Shown piece after piece: positions 8,248 to 35,428 of a stretch of DNA of 55,215 nucleotides. The position numbers were made by a program, and so were the translations under genes. Numbering within the stretch: position 1 is the stretch's first letter; every line of letters begins with the position of its first letter. A model generated the notes under the pieces. That model was not told where the DNA came from. It worked only from the letters and a program-made list of their open reading frames with translations, and ran no database searches. Source of the DNA: Acidobacteriota bacterium (GTDB lineage: Bacteria; Acidobacteriota; Vicinamibacteria; Vicinamibacterales; CAVVIG01); NCBI GenBank assembly GCA_046728115.1, contig JBKPDW010000110.1, forward strand, positions 1 through 55,215, read 5' to 3'.

Positions 8248-9134
8248 CCATGACGACTCTCGAACCCCTTCCGCCGGACCGCCTGGTGGTGTCGATCGAC
8301 GACCGGCGGCCGACAATTCTCGACGTCATCCGGAACGCAAAACATCGCATCGAGCTCTCGCTGTTCCGGTGCAACGACGACGCGATTTTCGACACGCTCG
8401 CTGAGGCGACCAGGCGCGGCGTCGCTGTCGAAGTCCTCACGACCTCGAGAGCAAAGGGCGGTCGCAAGCGACTCGAAAAACTGTGGGCGGCGCTCGAGCA
8501 GACCGGCGCCATAGTGAAGACCTACACCGACCCGGTCGTGAAATATCACGCCAAGTACATGATCGCCGACGAGGGGCCGGCAGTGGTGGCGTCGTTGAAC
8601 TTGACGAAGAAGTGCTTCAGCAAAACCTGCGATGGCATCGTCGTCACGCACGATCCAGCGGTTGTGGCGGATCTGCGCCGAGTGATGGTCGCGGATGCGC
8701 AAGGCGCGAAGATTCCGGGCGACCTCACGGATCGACTCGTGATTGGACCCGAGCGCGCGCGGCGCCAGTTCACCGCGCTCATCGAGCAGGCCCGCACGAG
8801 CATCCGGTTGATCGACGCGAAGCTTTCCGATCCCGATCTCGTCTCGCTGCTTCGGGCGCGGCGTGCCGCCGGCCTGACAGTCGAAGTGTTCGACAGCCGG
8901 CGCCTGGGCGCACTGAAGTCGCACGGGAAGATCATGCTGATCGACGACGCGAAGGTCGTGGTGGGCAGCCTGGCGCTGGCGGCCTTGAGTCTCGACTTCC
9001 GCCGCGAGGTCGCAATCGTGGTTCACGAACCGTCGGCGGTCGCCGAGGCTGCCGAGCTGTTCCGGACGTTGAACGCCGCAGCCGCCGAAGCGGGAACGAT
9101 CCCCGCCGGGGCCGTCGATGGAGCTTCATGTTGA
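8244..9134 (+). CDS. Phospholipase D-superfamily protein with two HKD motifs
   Basis: HAKYMIAD and HGKIMLID (HxKxxxxD twice); ATGA overlap with the upstream gene; no signal peptide or TM seen. Confidence 0.88.
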   Translation: MTMTTLEPLPPDRLVVSIDDRRPTILDVIRNAKHRIELSLFRCNDDAIFDTLAEATRRGVAVEVLTTSRAKGGRKRLEKLWAALEQTGAIVKTYTDPVVKYHAKYMIADEGPAVVASLNLTKKCFSKTCDGIVVTHDPAVVADLRRVMVADAQGAKIPGDLTDRLVIGPERARRQFTALIEQARTSIRLIDAKLSDPDLVSLLRARRAAGLTVEVFDSRRLGALKSHGKIMLIDDAKVVVGSLALAALSLDFRREVAIVVHEPSAVAEAAELFRTLNAAAAEAGTIPAGAVDGASC

Positions 9135-15952: not shown

Positions 15953-16113
15953 GAAGTCTGAAGTCTGAAGTCTGAAGTCTGAAATTCGAAGTCGTGAAAT
16001 CTGACGTCATGTCCGACCGAGGGATCCGAACGCGGCAGGGGCCGCACTCTTGATTTCGTACTTCTGACCGCTGACTTCTAACTTCTAACTTCGAACTTCG
16101 AACTTCGAACTTT
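15953..16113. repeat. Inverted 7-mer periodic repeat element (GAAGTCT)n ... (NNACTTC)n
   Basis: GAAGTCT x4 plus variants at 15953-16003; TGATTTC/GTACTTC/TGACTTC/TAACTTC x2/GAACTTC x2 at 16051-16113; arms are complementary in the GAAGT/ACTTC core. Confidence 0.85.
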
Positions 16114-17927: not shown

Positions 17928-19042
17928 GAGCACGCCACGTCCAGGAGCCGCGGGAGCACGCGGTTCGCGTCGAAGTACTCACGGGCGATCTCGGTCGCGC
18001 GGCGTGCGTGTCGCTCGTAATCGGCGTTGATCCGGTCGATTCCGGACACGGCTTCGTCGACCGTTGAGAACGCCAGCAGGCCGTCGCCTTCCGGCAGGTG
18101 CGCCGACCATCCGGTGTCCTGCACGAGCGCAGGACGGCCGGACGCCAGATAGCACTCCGTTCGGTCGCTGAACCATCCGGTTCGATGCGTCACGTACGTG
18201 TGTTTCGCGACGCCGAACTCGGCCCTGGACTGATGGATGAAGTCGCGATATCCCTGCGGCGTGCTCGACATCGCCATGGCGTCGATCGTATCCCACCCAT
18301 ACTCGCGAAGCAGCTTCTGCGGACCGTTGACCGCCAGCTGGAACCCCTGGGACGTCCGAGACGGCAGATCGATGAACTTCAGGAACTCGATGTCCTTGTT
18401 GCCGCCGACGTCCGTGAAGCTCTCGATTTGCCACGTCATGACCGTCGTGAACCGATCGCCGCCATTCGTGCGCGGCTGCCAGTCGTTCAGCGTAATCGGC
18501 TGCCACGTCTTCTGCCAGGTGAATGTCCCGGTGGGGACGTCAGATGCCGGCGTGCCGATGTTGGCGCCGAAGGTGAACAGACGATCGAATCGCTGAAAAA
18601 ACTGGACGTACCACTCCACGCCTTTCGCCATGGCCAGCTGCGTAAAGGCGGGATCGGAATCGATGAACACCTTGCGCGGAATCCGCGCGTACTCGTCGCG
18701 CCAGAACCACGATCCACCCGAGAGGTTGATGTACAAGTCGGCGTCGGCGGCATACGTCCGCACCGCATCGGCCGTCGATCCGTGGTAGCTCCCGTCGTAG
18801 TTGACGAACGCCCACCGATCGCCGAGGCCGAACGGCGCAAGGGCGTTGTGAATGTACGTCGTGCCGTAAGCGGGATCGAGCGCGCGGACGTTCTGCACCG
18901 GGTCGTACACGCACTCGCCCGTGTCTTCGATATAGAAAACCTCGTGCCCCAACGCCCGCAGCCCGAGCAGATACATCAGCGAACACCAGGTGACGCCGCC
19001 GAACGGGTAACGAGCGATGATGCCTGCGAACAAAATGCGCAT
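17924..19042 (-). CDS. Putative GT-B glycosyltransferase-like protein
   Basis: N-terminal GG..W..L.Y..GL..LGHEVFYIED; C-terminal SDR..CYLASGRPALVQDTG..LP.G.GLLAF, resembling CgeB/YkvP-type GT C-terminal domains. Confidence 0.65.
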   Translation of the reverse strand: MRILFAGIIARYPFGGVTWCSLMYLLGLRALGHEVFYIEDTGECVYDPVQNVRALDPAYGTTYIHNALAPFGLGDRWAFVNYDGSYHGSTADAVRTYAADADLYINLSGGSWFWRDEYARIPRKVFIDSDPAFTQLAMAKGVEWYVQFFQRFDRLFTFGANIGTPASDVPTGTFTWQKTWQPITLNDWQPRTNGGDRFTTVMTWQIESFTDVGGNKDIEFLKFIDLPSRTSQGFQLAVNGPQKLLREYGWDTIDAMAMSSTPQGYRDFIHQSRAEFGVAKHTYVTHRTGWFSDRTECYLASGRPALVQDTGWSAHLPEGDGLLAFSTVDEAVSGIDRINADYERHARRATEIAREYFDANRVLPRLLDVACS

Positions 19043-19043
19043 T

Positions 19044-19140
19044 TCCAGACTTCAGATTTCAGACTTCAGATTGATTGCAGGATGGATTAGAGATTTCAGA
19101 AATCTGGAAATGAATCTGCAGGCTGACCCTGAAATCTGAA
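19044..19140. repeat. 7-mer periodic repeat with terminal inverted repeat
   Basis: TTCAGAT/TTCAGAC units at 19051-19071; perfect 12-bp IR TTCAGATTTCAG (19051-19062) / CTGAAATCTGAA (19129-19140). Confidence 0.8.
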
Positions 19141-25691: not shown

Positions 25692-25713
25692 AGACGGTTG
25701 GACGAATCCGTTG

Positions 25714-25748
25714 GGTTCAGGGTTCAAGGTGCAGGACTCAGGGTTCAA
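25714..25748. repeat. 7-mer tandem repeat GGTTCA(G/A) overlapping the hisA stop
   Basis: GGTTCAG GGTTCAA GGTGCAG GACTCAG GGTTCAA. Confidence 0.65.
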
Positions 25749-30773: not shown

Positions 30774-31661
30774 CTACAGAACAATCTTGTTCAGCGGATA
30801 CTCGACGATCCCCTGGGCGCGCGCTGATTTCAACCGCGGAATCAGATCGCGCACCGTTCGTTCCTCGATGATCGTGTTGACCGCCACCCACTCCTCGTCG
30901 CTCAGTCCGGAAATCGTCGGCCGCTGAAGCGCCGGCAGCAGCGCGAGGACCGCGTCGAGATCGGCGCGCCGGACGTTCAGCATCAGGCCCACGCGACCTT
31001 GAGCTTCGATCGCGGCCCGGAGCAGCAGTGCGATGTTTTCCAGCTTCGTTCGCTTCCACTGGTCGGCGAGCGCCGTGTGGTTCGCGATGAGCTGTGTGTT
31101 CGATTCCATCACGGTGTCGACGATCCGCAGTCGATTGGCGCGAAGGGTCGAGCCTGTTTCGGTCGCCTCGACGATCGCGTCGGCGAGAACCGGTGGTTTC
31201 ACCTCGGTGGCGCCCCACGAGAACTCGACGTTCACCTTGACGCCATGCCGCTCGAAATACGCGCGCGTTGCGCGAACGAGTTCCGTTGCGACGGTCTTCC
31301 CCTCGAGGTCCCTCGGGCAGCGAATCGAGGACTCCTCCGGTGCTGCCAGCACCCATTTGACTTTCCCGAAACTCTGCTTCGAATAAATCAGATCAGCGAT
31401 GGTCGTGATGACGCCGGTCCGGCCGTCGCCGGCCTCGTGCTCGGCGATCCAGTCCTGTCCCGTCAGACCGGCGTCGAGCACGCCATCCGAGACATAGCGC
31501 GCCATTTCCTGCGCGCGGATCAACATGCATTCGAGTTCCGGATCGTCAACCGCCGGAAAGTACGATCGTGAGCTGACGTAGATGTTGAAGCCCGCGCGTG
31601 CGAACAACTGCACGGTCGCGTCCTGCAACGAACCCTTGGGAATGCCGAGTTTCAGTGTCAT
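30774..31661 (-). CDS. hisG: ATP phosphoribosyltransferase, long form with C-terminal regulatory domain
   Basis: [39 protein letters not shown]; C-terminal LPAL..PTIS.L. Confidence 0.95.
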
Positions 31662-31726
31662 GGCTTCAGTCACACCTCCAGCACGGGGCGCAAGCTCTCC
31701 ACTGCGCGGCGCGACGCTCTCCGCCA

Positions 31727-31792
31727 CAGACGACACACGGGACACGGGGCAGGACTTTCATGCTCCGTGTCTCCCGTGTCCCCCGTGGTGGA
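31727..31792. repeat. Palindromic 9-mer repeat (GACACGGG.../..CCGTGTC, CCGTGGT) spanning the hisI stop
   Basis: GACACACGGGACACGGGG ... CTCCGTGTCTCCCGTGTCCCCCGTGGTG forms an imperfect hairpin; related unit TCCTCTGTGTCCGCCGTGGT near 13311-13330. Confidence 0.65.
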
Positions 31793-32117
31793 GAGATTCT
31801 GGAGCTGGCTCGAGCTTGCGATAGAAACACGTTCTCGCCCCCGTGTGGCACACGTTGCCGTCGCCGAGGCGTTTCACCTTCACGAGCACCGTGTCATCGT
31901 CGCAATCCACGAGGATGTCGATCACTTCGAGCCTGTTGCCGGAGGTTTCGCCCTTGGTCCACAGCCTGTTGCGCGTGCGGCTGAAGAACGTGGCATAGCC
32001 GGTCCGCCTGGTGTCAGCCAGCGCCTGTTCGTTCATGAAGCCGACCATCAGCACTTCGGCCGAGTCCGCATCCTGAATGACCGCGGGTATCAGTCCGTCG
32101 AGTTTTGAAAAGTCCAT
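31758..32117 (-). CDS. hisI: Phosphoribosyl-AMP cyclohydrolase (monofunctional, no HisE domain)
   Basis: GLIPAVIQD, VLMVGFMN, SR.R..LW.KGETSG, DCDDD, CHTG..TCF. Confidence 0.95.
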   Translation of the reverse strand: MDFSKLDGLIPAVIQDADSAEVLMVGFMNEQALADTRRTGYATFFSRTRNRLWTKGETSGNRLEVIDILVDCDDDTVLVKVKRLGDGNVCHTGARTCFYRKLEPAPESLHHGGHGRHGA

Positions 32118-32153
32118 AAAAGAAAAAACCCCGCCGGATGGCGGGGTCCCTTT
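32118..32153 (-). terminator. Intrinsic terminator (attenuator) upstream of hisI
   Basis: Minus strand ACCCCGCC-atcc-GGCGGGGT followed by TTTTTCTTTT and then the hisI ATG. Confidence 0.9.
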
Positions 32154-32154
32154 T

Positions 32155-32196
32155 TGGTCCTTGGTTCCTGGTGCCTGGTCCCTGGTGCTTGGTCCC
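32155..32196. repeat. Six 7-mer tandem units TGGTNC(C/T) inside the his leader
   Basis: TGGTCCT TGGTTCC TGGTGCC TGGTCCC TGGTGCT TGGTCCC. Confidence 0.85.
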
Positions 32197-32198
32197 GC

Positions 32199-32270
32199 CT
32201 AGATCGCGCACACTCCACTGGCCCGATGGCCGTGATGATGGAAGTGGCCGTGATGGCAGACCGCGAACAT
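32199..32270 (-). CDS. hisL: His operon leader peptide MFAVCHHGHFHHHGHRASGVCAI (23 aa, 7 His)
   Basis: Translated by hand; 7 His in a 10-codon window; lies upstream of the terminator and the his operon; absent from the ORF track. Confidence 0.92.
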   Translation of the reverse strand: MFAVCHHGHFHHHGHRASGVCAI

Positions 32271-32279
32271 GAAGATGTG

Positions 32280-32309
32280 AGCCTAGCCGATCGTCAAATG
32301 ACGTGTCAA
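32280..32309 (-). promoter_or_regulatory. Sigma70-type promoter for the his leader
   Basis: Minus strand TTGACA-N18-TAGGCT; -10 ends 9 nt before the leader ATG, so the transcript would be nearly leaderless. Confidence 0.65.
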
Positions 32310-32752
32310 CGGCGCCGGTCGGCGTTGGAAGGCGGCGTGGCCTCGCGGGCGACCATGACTTCGGTCGCCTTGATAATCGCGAGCGCATCATCCCCTCTGC
32401 GAAGCTTCAACTCTTCGACGGCGTCGCGTGTGATGACGGCGGTCAGTGTTTGATCGCCAATCTTGAGCCGCACCTGGGCGAGGAGGCCCTCGACGCGGAC
32501 CTCGTCGACGTATCCATGCAGCTGATTCCGCCCGCTGATCGAGACGATCGCGCCGGTCCGCCGCGGCGGCCGCTTGCGCGCGTTCGGCCTCGTCGACGGC
32601 GCCAGCAGGCGATCGACCTCGTTTTCGGCAATGCGATGGTGGCCGCCGCTGGTCAGCCGCGTGCGGACGCGGCCTTCGTAGATCCAATGCTTCAGTGTGG
32701 AGTAGCCGACACCGAGGCGCCGCGCAGCCTGTCTGACCGTCAGGAGTGACAT
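32306..32752 (-). CDS. Excisionase/MerR-like HTH + TOBE domain protein (molybdate-responsive regulator, ModE-like role)
   Basis: LLTVRQAARRLGV..STLKHWI..G HTH; ISGRNQL.G.V..V TOBE with A.IKAT.V; divergent from modA. Confidence 0.9.
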   Translation of the reverse strand: MSLLTVRQAARRLGVGYSTLKHWIYEGRVRTRLTSGGHHRIAENEVDRLLAPSTRPNARKRPPRRTGAIVSISGRNQLHGYVDEVRVEGLLAQVRLKIGDQTLTAVITRDAVEELKLRRGDDALAIIKATEVMVAREATPPSNADRRR

Positions 32753-32806
32753 GGCTAATATCGCCTATAAAAAACAGCTTGAATCATATTAAACTGTGCG
32801 ATTGTT
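32753..32806. promoter_or_regulatory. AT-rich divergent promoter region with ATCGC..GCGAT inverted ends; candidate operator
   Basis: ATCGC (32760-32764) and GCGAT (32798-32802) flank an AT-rich core; spacing is longer than a canonical ModE box. Confidence 0.3.
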
Positions 32807-33598
32807 GTGAAGAGCTGCTGTCGGGTCGTGGCATGTGTCCTGCTTGGGGGAAGCCTCGCCTGCAGCGCCCCTGCGGGCACCGGCAGCGGCCGGACGAGTA
32901 TCCGGCTCGCGGCGGCGTCAGACCTTCAGGCCGCGCTCGGTGAGTTGACGGCTCGCTTCTCCGCGTCCCACGCGGTGGACGTGTTCGTTTCCTACGGATC
33001 GTCGGGGACGTTCTTCACCCAGCTCGTCAATGGTGCGCCGTACGACATGTTCTTGTCCGCCGACGTGGCCTATCCAAAAAGACTGGCGGATCGGGGACTC
33101 GCCGTCAGCGGCAGCGAGTTCACCTATGCCATCGGCCGGATCGTCGTCTGGGTTCCGGCGTCGTCGCCGCTCGCCGTCGAGCGCTCGGGTCTGGCCACGC
33201 TTGCCGCCGACTCGGTCAAGCGCGTCTCGATCGCGAATCCCGAGCATGCGCCATACGGCCGCGCGGCGGTTGCCGCGATGCAACACGCCGGCATCTACGA
33301 TCGGATCCGACCAAAGCTCGTGCTGGGTGAGAATATCGCCCAGGCGCTGCAGTTCGTTCAGAGCGGTGCAGCCGACGTCGGAATCGTCGCGTTGTCGCTT
33401 GCGCTCGCACCGAACCTCAAATTACAAGGTCGTTGGTTCGAGATTCCATCGAGCGAATATCCAACCATCGAACAGGGCGGCGTGATCCTGAAGAGCACAC
33501 CGAATCCCGCCGCCGCACAGGAATTTCGAGCCTTTCTGACCGGCGCCGACGGCCGCGCCATCCTGAAGCAGTTCGGCTTCTCGGTGGCCGGAGAATAG
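32807..33598 (+). CDS. modA: Molybdate ABC transporter substrate-binding lipoprotein
   Basis: Lipobox-like SLAC; AAASDL, GSSG, GAPYDMFLSAD, IANP.HAPYG.AA. Confidence 0.94.
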   Translation: MKSCCRVVACVLLGGSLACSAPAGTGSGRTSIRLAAASDLQAALGELTARFSASHAVDVFVSYGSSGTFFTQLVNGAPYDMFLSADVAYPKRLADRGLAVSGSEFTYAIGRIVVWVPASSPLAVERSGLATLAADSVKRVSIANPEHAPYGRAAVAAMQHAGIYDRIRPKLVLGENIAQALQFVQSGAADVGIVALSLALAPNLKLQGRWFEIPSSEYPTIEQGGVILKSTPNPAAAQEFRAFLTGADGRAILKQFGFSVAGE

Positions 33599-33599
33599 C

Positions 33600-34271
33600 G
33601 TGGACTGGACGGCGGTCTGGTTGAGTATTCGCCTCGCGACAGCGACGACGCTGGTGCTGTTGGCCATCGGCATTCCCCTCGCATACTGGATCGTATTCTC
33701 GCCGCGCCGCTGGAAATTTCTCGTGGAGGCGGTCGTCGCGCTGCCTTTGGTGTTGCCGCCCACTGTGCTCGGCTTTTACGTCCTGGTGGCAATCGGTCCA
33801 TTCAGTCCCGTCGGCCGTGCGTACGTGCGTCTGGTGGGACACGGGCTGCCGTTCACGTTCGAGGGGCTGCTGATCGCCTCCGTGCTGTACTCGCTGCCGT
33901 TTGCCGTGCAGCCGTTCAGCACCGAGTTCGCGTCGGTTGACGCGCGGCTGCTCGAGGCGTCGTGGTCTCTCGGGGTGTCGCGCCTCGCCACGTTTCGACG
34001 AATCGTCATCCCGTTGTCGGTGCGCGGCCTGGTGACCGGGGTCGTCCTCAGCTTCGCGCACACGCTCGGTGAATTCGGCGTCGTGTTGATGGTGGGTGGA
34101 AATGTCCCGGGAGCGACGCGCACGGTGTCGATTTCGATTTACGACGCCGTGCAGTCGCTCGATTATGCAGCGGCGTCTCGCACGTCGATGTTCCTTCTGG
34201 TGATTTCGTTCGTGATTCTCGTTTCGGCCTATCTGCTTCAGCGAACGGTATGGGTTCGGCCGCGGCATTGA
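33600..34271 (+). CDS. modB: Molybdate ABC transporter permease
   Basis: LPLVLPPTVLGF, FAHTLGEFG..LMVGGN.PG.TRT.S. Confidence 0.95.
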   Translation: MDWTAVWLSIRLATATTLVLLAIGIPLAYWIVFSPRRWKFLVEAVVALPLVLPPTVLGFYVLVAIGPFSPVGRAYVRLVGHGLPFTFEGLLIASVLYSLPFAVQPFSTEFASVDARLLEASWSLGVSRLATFRRIVIPLSVRGLVTGVVLSFAHTLGEFGVVLMVGGNVPGATRTVSISIYDAVQSLDYAAASRTSMFLLVISFVILVSAYLLQRTVWVRPRH

Positions 34272-35428
34272 CAGGAGACTCTGCCGGCCCCGGCCTGCAG
34301 ATGTCGGTGGCGCAGCGCTTCGCGAGCGGATTCAGTGTCGCAGCGAGGTTGGACGTTCGTCTGCCGCCGGGAACGATCCTCGTTTTCTTCGGACCGTCAG
34401 GGTCCGGAAAAACGACGTTGCTGAGATTAATCGCGGGGTTGGAGCGACCTGACCGCGGCACCATTCGGTTCGATGACCAGTCGTGGTGCGACACCGACCG
34501 CGGCATCTGGCGTCCGGCTCAGGATCGCCGCGTGGGCCTCGTATTCCAGGAGCCAGCGCTCTTCCCGCATCTCTCCGTCCGCGCCAACATCGCGTATGGG
34601 GTCGCAGCCAGGCGGCATCCAGGTCGCAGCCGGATCGCGTCGCCGCCCGGTCGCGCTCAGGTCGCATCCGGGTCCGACCGCATCGCAGAAATTGCGGGGA
34701 CGTTGGGGATCGCGGATCTCGATCGGTATCCGAGGAAGTTGTCGGGCGGCGAGGCGCAGCGCGTGGCTCTGGCCCGCGCCCTGACGCCGGATCCTCGACT
34801 GCTGCTGCTGGACGAACCGTTTGCCTCGCTCGACGGCCCGACGCGCGGCCGGCTGCGCCGCGATCTGCGCGCACAGTTACGCCGCATTGGCACACCAGCC
34901 ATCCTGGTGACGCACGATCGGACCGAGGCCCTGGCGATCGGCGATTCGATGGCCGTCGTCATGGCAGGCGAGGTTCGTCAGGTGGGCGCCGTTGCAGACG
35001 TGTTCAGCCACCCGCGCGATGCCGGCGTCGCCGCGGCACTTGGCGTCGAGGCGGTTCTGCCGGCCCGCATCGCCGAGACGTCAGACGGATTGCTGGCCGT
35101 TGCCATCAACGACGTCGTGCTGCACGTTGCGGAACGGACCGACGACGATCGCATTCAGGCCGGATCGCACGTCTACGCCTGCATTCGCGCGGAAGATGTC
35201 ACACTTGAAGCGCAGACGTCCAGGCGCGCGAGCGCGCGCAACCACCTGGCTGCTCGTGTGATGTCGATCCAGTCGGAGGGCGCCGTCGATCGCATCACGC
35301 TCGACTGCGGGTTTCCGCTCGACGCGGTGATTACGCGCCGATCGCGGGAGGATTTGAACCTGTCGGAAGGCGTGCAGGTCGTCGCAGCGATCAAAGCGAC
35401 ATCGATTCATCTCGTGCCGCGAGCGTAG
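34250..35428 (+). CDS. modC: Molybdate ABC transporter ATP-binding protein with TOBE domain; start may be TTG 34268
   Basis: GPSGSGKTT, LFPHLSV, LSGGEAQR, LLLDEPF; C-terminal SARN TOBE. Confidence 0.93.
   Translation: MGSAAALTGDSAGPGLQMSVAQRFASGFSVAARLDVRLPPGTILVFFGPSGSGKTTLLRLIAGLERPDRGTIRFDDQSWCDTDRGIWRPAQDRRVGLVFQEPALFPHLSVRANIAYGVAARRHPGRSRIASPPGRAQVASGSDRIAEIAGTLGIADLDRYPRKLSGGEAQRVALARALTPDPRLLLLDEPFASLDGPTRGRLRRDLRAQLRRIGTPAILVTHDRTEALAIGDSMAVVMAGEVRQVGAVADVFSHPRDAGVAAALGVEAVLPARIAETSDGLLAVAINDVVLHVAERTDDDRIQAGSHVYACIRAEDVTLEAQTSRRASARNHLAARVMSIQSEGAVDRITLDCGFPLDAVITRRSREDLNLSEGVQVVAAIKATSIHLVPRA

Follow-up and report, generated by a model that had tools for sequence, protein, structure and literature searches.

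The locus considered here raises the question of whether a soil acidobacterium of the order Vicinamibacterales controls histidine biosynthesis by leader-peptide attenuation. The element in question occupies 192 nt (positions 32118–32309, read on the minus strand) immediately upstream of hisI in a stretch of 55,215 nt, which we call the window, meaning the whole stretch of DNA that was analyzed. A sequence-only reading had listed a TTGACA-N18-TAGGCT promoter, a His-rich peptide of 23 amino acids, a GGCGGG complementary to CCCGCC, and a terminator with a U tract, and had interpreted them as a complete ribosome-mediated His attenuator, (near-)leaderless and acidobacterial. Each of these elements was found on the minus strand, and the interpretation was upheld by comparative evidence, with four corrections. 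We consider it likely (a probability of roughly 0.8, judged from sequence and comparison) that the element acts as a classical ribosome-mediated transcription attenuator, sensing charged tRNA-His and governing expression of the entire his operon.

Leader, terminator and promoter upstream of hisI

The hisL-like open reading frame (ORF) comprises 23 codons and a UAG stop (32270–32199, on the minus strand like all features of the element given below), with its ATG at 32270. Its translation, MFAVCHHGHFHHHGHRASGVCAI, contains 7 His among 23 residues, the His codons lying at 32255–32250, 32246–32244, 32240–32232 and 32228–32226, and any longer leader ORF is blocked by an in-frame TAG within the –10 box. 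The G of the stop codon (UAG, 32201–32199) is the first base of GGCGGG (32199–32194), the predicted antiterminator strand, which thus overlaps the stop, lies 26 nt downstream of the last His codon, and is complementary to CCCGCC at 32145–32140. The terminator consists of a 5΄ arm (region 3, AAGGGACCCCGCC, 32152–32140), which includes this CCCGCC as the alternative partner of GGCGGG, a loop (AUCC, 32139–32136) and a 3΄ arm (region 4, GGCGGGGUUUUUU, 32135–32123). Its stem (32152–32123) has 13 pairs, 7 of them G-C, with a folding energy of approximately –19.6 kcal/mol, and the U tract UUUUUUCUUUU (32128–32118) runs up to the start codon of hisI (32117–31758), the ATG of which follows directly at 32117. 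According to Pfam matches, the operon to be regulated (32117–25741, minus strand) comprises eight genes: hisI, hisG (long form), hisD, a hisC-type class I/II aminotransferase gene, hisB (IGPD), hisH (GATase) and, as the last two, His_biosynth genes (hisA/hisF) extending down to about 25741.

We compared this locus with those of 61 related genomes, 53 of which have hisI, and with a wider set of 101 non-identical loci; the close HisI homologues came from metagenome-assembled genomes titled Vicinamibacterales, Vicinamibacteria or Acidobacteriota. A His-rich short ORF was present upstream of hisI in all 53 related genomes having that gene, and a canonical intrinsic terminator lay between this ORF and hisI in 52 of the 53. 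The arrangement of His leader and terminator is shared by approximately 48 further named Vicinamibacterales or Acidobacteriota loci, and was not found at hisI loci of Bacteroidota, in which other genes precede hisI in the operon. Beyond the 53 genomes, about 60 Vicinamibacterales contigs have this layout before hisI. Among the 101 non-identical loci, the leader had a median of 24 codons and 6 His, and the only conserved features of the leader were the His run and boxes at the RNA level. The genes upstream of the leader differed among approximately 100 loci, and the his genes were always downstream.

These observations bear on the alternative that the ORF became His-rich by chance beside the terminator of the upstream regulator gene, or that it encodes a functional His-rich micropeptide that binds metal. 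The terminator could also end transcripts of that regulator gene, which encodes a TOBE protein and has its stop codon within the –35 box. However, a His-rich ORF is kept in approximately 100 loci in spite of varying upstream genes, the element always precedes his genes, conservation is confined to the His run and the RNA boxes, and the reading frame across the 3΄ box varies among genomes. The probability of this alternative is accordingly close to negligible.

A covariance model (R1) built from 36 sequences matched 31 of 37 sampled genomes of the order. Elsewhere in the phylum, 20 weaker matches were inspected, and 10 of them had His-rich leaders; nine of these leaders directly precede hisI or hisG (families f45, f93, f58 and f60), and the tenth was in family f36, where the downstream gene is unclear. 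The remaining weaker matches were leaders of other kinds or plain terminators at gene ends. The model and its seed alignment describe a candidate RNA family of approximately 100 sequences with one match per genome. With good comparative support, the finding would add Acidobacteriota, a soil phylum that is abundant and has received little study, to the groups with classical leader-peptide attenuation, and it points to an unannotated hisL gene and to the probable logic by which the his operon of these genomes is regulated. Among the model matches that look like leaders for other amino acids, a Phe-rich ORF (MFDRASLSFVFLADF...) with a terminator was noted before a chorismate-mutase-like gene, judged by eye from its N-terminus (L139 in genome G185, family f69), as was a Pro-containing ORF (MILIPAIHPRPS...) with a terminator followed by a proC-like (pyrroline-5-carboxylate reductase) gene, N-termini again being judged by eye (L135 and L140 in genomes G147 and G253, family f48).

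Upstream of the leader, the –35 box TTGACA (32309–32304), which holds the TGA stop (32308–32306) of the upstream HTH/TOBE regulator gene, is separated by an 18-nt spacer from a –10 box of the TAnnnT type (TAGGCT, 32285–32280). The nine nucleotides between the –10 box and the leader ATG contained no Shine–Dalgarno (SD)-like motif. TTGACA (with at most one mismatch)-N16–19-TAnnnT occurred just upstream of the leader in 67 of the 101 related loci, and among these 67 the distance from the –10 box to the start codon was 9 nt in 31 and 8–10 nt in 50; an SD-like motif preceded the leader in only 4/101 loci. Since both boxes and the fixed distance to the start codon are conserved across loci, these results support the predicted promoter. 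The short fixed distance and the lack of an SD sequence argue for a leader mRNA that is leaderless or nearly leaderless, and the 9-nt distance provides indirect evidence of leaderless translation in Acidobacteriota.

Mutually exclusive helices and the position of the ribosome

The leader has three conserved, mutually exclusive helices: helix 1:2 overlaps the His codons, helix 2:3 is the antiterminator and helix 3:4 is the terminator. Most relatives have as region 2 a conserved box, CCGGCGGAG-UUGCGCGUGAUCUAGG (GGCGGAG-UUGCGCGUGAUCUAGG), which spans the last ~6 codons and the stop. The 5΄ half of the box pairs with CGCAA-CCCCGCC, which includes the 5΄ arm of the terminator, to form 2:3, and the 3΄ half pairs with AUCACGYGCA, that is, the codons for His-His-Val/Ala-His, to form 1:2. 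The conserved box GCGUGAUCUAGG holds both a UGA and a UAG, 4 nt apart and in different frames, and genomes use one or the other. As the stop is supplied in two frames, the constraint is on the RNA rather than on the peptide. With stops in both frames, a ribosome in either frame would halt on region 2. In the window, region 1 (32262–32238), the anti-antiterminator strand, comprises codons 3–11 and overlaps the first His codons; in minimum free energy (MFE) folds it pairs with the 3΄ part of the ORF and GGCGGGACC. The sequence-only reading had not described region 1, which is added here. Folds also contain a local hairpin, GGCC-AUCG-GGCC (32231–32220), between the His codons and region 2, and analogous GC hairpins are found in relatives.

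We measured pairing of the helices in an alignment of 36 relatives and used as controls the same strands with the partner slid by 1–3 columns. For the terminator, 96% of the alignment cells were paired in register, compared with 41–64% when slid, and the corresponding values were 75% and 37–48% for the antiterminator. The 10-bp core of 1:2, AUCACGYGCA with UGCGCGUGAU, was paired in 81.5% of the cells in register versus 8–60% when slid, a conservation that is partly forced by the His codons. We further examined the antiterminator in a larger alignment of 92 rows, fitted to a model without the antiterminator, and found that 70.2% of the cells were paired (reached by 0 of 500 shuffles), that 47 cells were compensatory (reached by 2 of 500) and that the covariation score was 0.115 (reached by 1 of 500), these shuffle statistics taking no account of phylogeny. 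Moreover, duplexes between region 2 and region 3 of the same genome were more stable than those of mixed genomes (z = –6.6, P ≤ 0.0002), as were duplexes between region 1 and region 2 (z = –4.8). Regions 2 and 3 therefore co-vary among genomes.

The predicted folds also depended on where a ribosome was placed. We computed equilibrium folds with a 30-nt ribosome footprint masked, using RNAs ending at the 5΄ arm of the terminator, and found this arm paired with region 2 in 35 of the 53 loci for a ribosome in the middle of the His codons, in 16 of the 53 for naked RNA, and in 1 of the 53 for a ribosome at the stop codon. In full-length RNA, the terminator was part of the MFE structure in 49/53 loci (naked), 52/53 (ribosome at the stop) and 35/53 (mid-His).

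In the proposed mechanism, transcription would begin at the leader AUG or a few nucleotides ahead of it. Given the 9 nt between the –10 box and the AUG and the lack of an SD sequence, a ribosome would bind to the 5΄ end as soon as it emerges. When His is plentiful, the ribosome would reach the UAG, and its footprint would mask region 2 including GGCGGG; region 3 would then pair with region 4, the terminator would form, and RNA polymerase would halt at the U tract just before hisI. When no ribosome is present, region 1 (codons 3–11) would pair with region 2, and the terminator would form too. When His-tRNA is scarce, the ribosome would stall on one of the seven His codons and mask region 1, not region 2, so that GGCGGG would pair with CCCGCC as soon as that arm is made; with the terminator blocked, the polymerase would read into hisI-G-D-C-B-H-A/F. 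We infer the transcription start, the translation of the leader and the His-dependent read-through of the attenuator from the sequence and its conservation.

Because the U tract runs directly into hisI, the initiation of hisI itself must be considered. The sequence-only reading had suggested that the G-rich 3΄ arm of the terminator doubles as a sequestered ribosome binding site. This candidate was rejected: in the window's own genome, GGAGG peaks 4–8 nt before start codons and GGCGG, the motif of the arm, shows no spacing peak there; the arm lies 11 nt from the hisI ATG. The hisI gene thus appears to lack an SD sequence and to have a U-rich leader. This leads to a second alternative, in which control is mainly translational: the hairpin would occlude ribosome binding at hisI and the leader ribosome would open it. 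The position of the stem, which ends 6–11 nt before the ATG of an SD-less hisI, is consistent with this idea, and there is a precedent in leaderless short ORFs (sORFs) (bioRxiv 10.1101/834739). However, the full features of an intrinsic terminator (a G-C stem and at least 6 U) are present in 52/53 relatives, and GGCGG is not used as an SD sequence in the genome. Of 99 loci, 21 have the terminator no more than 12 nt from the hisI ATG and 78 have it farther away (median 30 nt), and so occlusion is not the general mechanism; elsewhere the terminator is 20–200 nt upstream of hisI, and many such hisI genes have their own SD-like AGGxGA. We therefore regard mainly translational control as very unlikely and retain transcription attenuation as the preferred reading, to which the adjacent hairpin may add some translational effect on hisI.

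The atypical copy in the window

The copy in the window departs from the family described above. Its region-2 box reads AGUGGAGUGUGCGCGAUCUAG, in which GGCGG and UGA are lost and the frame is shifted so that the UAG is the stop. Ahead of the terminator, a heptamer array stands in place of the segment with which the box pairs in relatives. Region 2 of the window (32218–32191) accordingly consists of AGUGGAGUGUGCGCGAUCUAG and GCGGGACC and holds the degraded family box as well as the window-specific antiterminator strand GGCGGG. The 2:3 helix is GGCGGG:CCCGCC (6 G-C pairs) with 2 more pairs, closing a loop of ~50 nt made of heptamer repeats. This pairing, which the sequence-only reading had named as the antiterminator, is present, but it is restricted to the window and a few close relatives, whereas most relatives use the conserved longer box. 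The 1:2 helix of the window (–31 kcal/mol) ranks 10/53, and in this hairpin GGCGGG is sequestered by GGUCUGCC of codons 3–5.

Several results weigh against the attenuator reading, some for the family and some for this copy. A consensus promoter scan omits the his promoter, and TAGGCT agrees with TATAAT at only 3/6 positions. In the smaller alignment, covariation beyond conservation was weak, with one of five measures above shuffles; most helix positions are conserved rather than compensated, so that the support from covariation is moderate, and RNAalifold on the 36-sequence alignment recovered the terminator alone and left the alternative helices unresolved. The whole-leader fold of the window is not unusually stable (z = –1.16). 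Its 2:3 duplex (–14.3 kcal/mol) ranks 50/53 and is no better than those of shuffled region-2 sequences (z = +0.7). At equilibrium, the terminator wins in the full-length RNA of the window in every ribosome state. In the naked transcript before region 4 is made, GGCGGG:CCCGCC is already in the MFE structure, and for this reason the branch leading from no translation to termination is unclear in the window.

It could be argued from these values that the window copy is partly decayed, and that it terminates at a fixed, largely His-independent rate or leaks, the family still being a true attenuator. Decay would have occurred when the heptamer array removed the ancestral extension of region 3 and mutations degraded the region-2 box. 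The low rank of the 2:3 duplex, the variable part of which ranks 53/53, and the presence of the terminator in the MFE structure in all ribosome states favor this view, as does the retention of a long antiterminator (–29 to –39 kcal/mol for the segment from region 2 to region 3) by two genomes of the same genus (L006 and L009). However, the copy retains an intact leader ORF with its His codons, an intact 1:2 helix and an intact terminator, and the position of the new GGCGGG, precisely at the stop codon, is one that a terminating ribosome would mask. The motif UAGGGCGG(G)ACC is shared by the array-bearing relatives L025, L158 and L163, which suggests compensation. R1 has a single match in the window's own genome and so gives no second such leader there, a second copy of the his genes not having been looked for. 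Classical antiterminators, moreover, are often weaker than their terminators, and that of the E. coli trp operon acts kinetically.

Taken together, these points make decay unlikely, and we consider it fairly probable that the window retains a working attenuator with a shifted, shorter antiterminator. Because this strand is short and its helix weaker than the terminator, it would have to act kinetically, by forming first. The window copy would then represent a natural experiment, in which an attenuator has outlived a repeat-array insertion by shifting its antiterminator strand.

The array itself (32196–32155) comprises six RGNACCA units in 42 nt and forms the loop between regions 2 and 3; Tandem Repeats Finder gave a period of 7, 6.0 copies and 77% matches (32155–32196). 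By a strict criterion, 5 of 111 spacers had a period-7 array and none had an array with a period of 5, 6, 8, 9 or 10. Arrays in the spacer from leader stop to terminator were observed in a subclade (L012, L154, L158–L160, L163–L167, L005 and L026), with units that differ (GGACCAA, GGACTAG, GAACTGA and GACTGAC). The attenuator spacer is either a hot spot for heptamer arrays or merely tolerates them. A metagenome scan for the window-specific junction gave no matches, and a scan with the 5΄ end of the leader gave 14 related contigs. Across the window's own genome, 322 period-7 arrays were counted (~40 per Mb), compared with 148, 79, 109 and 12 for periods 5, 6, 8 and 9 by the same criterion, and their units vary (GAAGTCT, AGTTCAG, TGGTCCC/GGGACCA, GGTGCCA). 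Further period-7 arrays in the window lie at 15953–16008, 16074–16112, 19041–19072 and 25713–25747. These arrays resemble the heptamer STRR repeats of cyanobacteria.

The location of the array, between the antiterminator and terminator strands, and its five GGA/GGGA motifs would suit a site at which a TRAP-, CsrA- or PyrR-like RNA-binding protein controls formation of the terminator, the His ORF being secondary, and several relatives have arrays in the same spacer. However, most relatives, among them the two genomes of the same genus, lack arrays, the units differ by lineage, and unrelated period-7 arrays are scattered over the genome, at least five of them in the window; no candidate protein was identified, the presence of CsrA not having been looked for. 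As a main explanation, such a protein site is extremely unlikely. A role of the array as a specific protein site or a rut site was rejected on the same grounds, namely absence from most relatives and occurrence of arrays genome-wide.

Known attenuators and neighboring features

We searched the window and the literature for known systems of this kind. A search of positions 31000–33500 with Rfam cmscan (E ≤ 10) gave no match to RF00514 (His_leader), a T-box or a riboswitch; the only leader-type matches were at chance level (Thr_leader, 16.5 bits; rnk_pseudo, 21.8 bits against a gathering score of 55). His attenuation is an established mechanism of Gammaproteobacteria (RF00514). Predictions of His-leader attenuators outside that group already exist for Actinobacteria and several lineages of Firmicutes (PMC9413887, PMC2965389, PMC1262725), and leaderless leader peptides followed by terminators have been found by transcriptomics in Streptomyces lividans and discussed for ilvL of Corynebacterium glutamicum (PMC8079986, PMC11857589). 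For Acidobacteriota, the searched literature contains almost no functionally assigned attenuators (PMC2965389), and no earlier report of a His attenuator in Acidobacteria or Vicinamibacter was found in it. The sequence-only reading had made the element seem more unusual than it is, since His leaders outside Gammaproteobacteria had already been predicted and leaderless leader peptides documented.

The element resembles hisL of E. coli and Salmonella (RF00514) in its short ORF with clustered His codons, its 1:2, 2:3 and 3:4 helices and an intrinsic terminator before the first gene of a unified his operon, which is controlled. It differs in having no match in sequence or structure to RF00514, a leader without an SD sequence that starts ~9 nt after the –10 box, His codons that are interspersed (HHGHFHHHGH) rather than seven in a row, hisI rather than hisG as the first gene, and a terminator that abuts the start codon. 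With trpL, leuL and ilvL of S. lividans and ilvL of C. glutamicum it would share a leader peptide translated from a leaderless transcript, followed by hairpins and a U tract, and –10 boxes of the TAnnnT type occur in high-GC genomes (PMC8079986, PMC11857589); unlike these, it belongs to another phylum and concerns another amino acid, no His leader being among the eight reported for S. lividans. The His leaders of Firmicutes (hisZ/hisS of the B. cereus group, Peptostreptococcaceae and Erysipelotrichales) are likewise lineage-specific, combine a terminator with an antiterminator, and were found by comparative genomics without being matched by RF00514 (PMC9413887, PMC2965389), but they are unrelated in sequence, regulate other genes in another phylum, and are not reported to be leaderless. 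Leaderless Cys-sensing sORFs of mycobacteria act by translational attenuation (Canestrari et al., bioRxiv 10.1101/834739). These polycysteine sORFs are similar in that the stalled ribosome of a leaderless sensory sORF remodels the RNA downstream, and in that several operons use the design; they differ in acting on translation, by sequestering a ribosome binding site, and in sensing Cys, whereas the window has a canonical intrinsic terminator and is predicted to sense His. Judged by these likenesses and differences, the predicted attenuator is a new, well-supported lineage of a known kind, not a new mechanism.

A second element of the same design was observed in the window's own genome, on the minus strand of contig C9, with its leader ATG at approximately position 8531 of the plus strand. 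It comprises TTGACA-N17-TATCGT, 10 nt, and an ATG that opens a 35-codon ORF (a WRWYW leader) ending in ...SAWRWYWSTTEEASALV. Inside this ORF, ACUGAAGAGGC repeats the 3΄ arm of the terminator and is thus a possible pairing partner of the 5΄ arm, GCCUCUUCAG; directly after the U tract comes the ATG of a fused AroD-AroE gene (DHquinase_I and shikimate dehydrogenase). This element is probably an attenuator responding to aromatic amino acids. A wider generalization, which we put forward tentatively and regard as rather doubtful, is that in Vicinamibacterales, and probably widely in Acidobacteriota, the his, aromatic and perhaps phe/pro operons share a leaderless mini-ORF design, and that array copy number in the subclade tunes the switch. 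If this were true, the shared design would consist of a promoter and, ~9 nt from it, a leaderless sensory mini-ORF, together with a terminator near the first gene, and the fast-evolving copy number of the array would set the delay between the making of regions 2 and 3 and thereby tune sensitivity.

Upstream of the his leader and co-directional with it lies a gene for an HTH_17/MerR and TOBE (ModE-like) regulator (32306–32752, minus strand), which is divergent from three plus-strand ORFs (32807–35428) with the look of a modABC-type molybdate ATP-binding cassette transporter, named by eye. There is no terminator between the regulator gene and the leader, and the attenuator terminator may end transcripts of the regulator gene too. 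The same regulator gene precedes the leader in some relatives (L002, L020 and L022). The terminator (32118–32157) is symmetric, being flanked by an A tract on its upstream side and a U tract on its downstream side, and was also scored on the plus strand; it could stop antisense transcription through hisI. Within the operon, the last ~14 residues of HisI (…ESLHHGGHGRHGA, 31758–31800) have no match in relatives, for which the alignments stop near residue 105; this C-terminal end overlaps a 9-nt tandem repeat (31765–31787). Finally, the GTG listed as the start of hisG (31745) probably lies too far upstream; the conserved N-terminus begins from an ATG at 31661 that is preceded by GGAGG.

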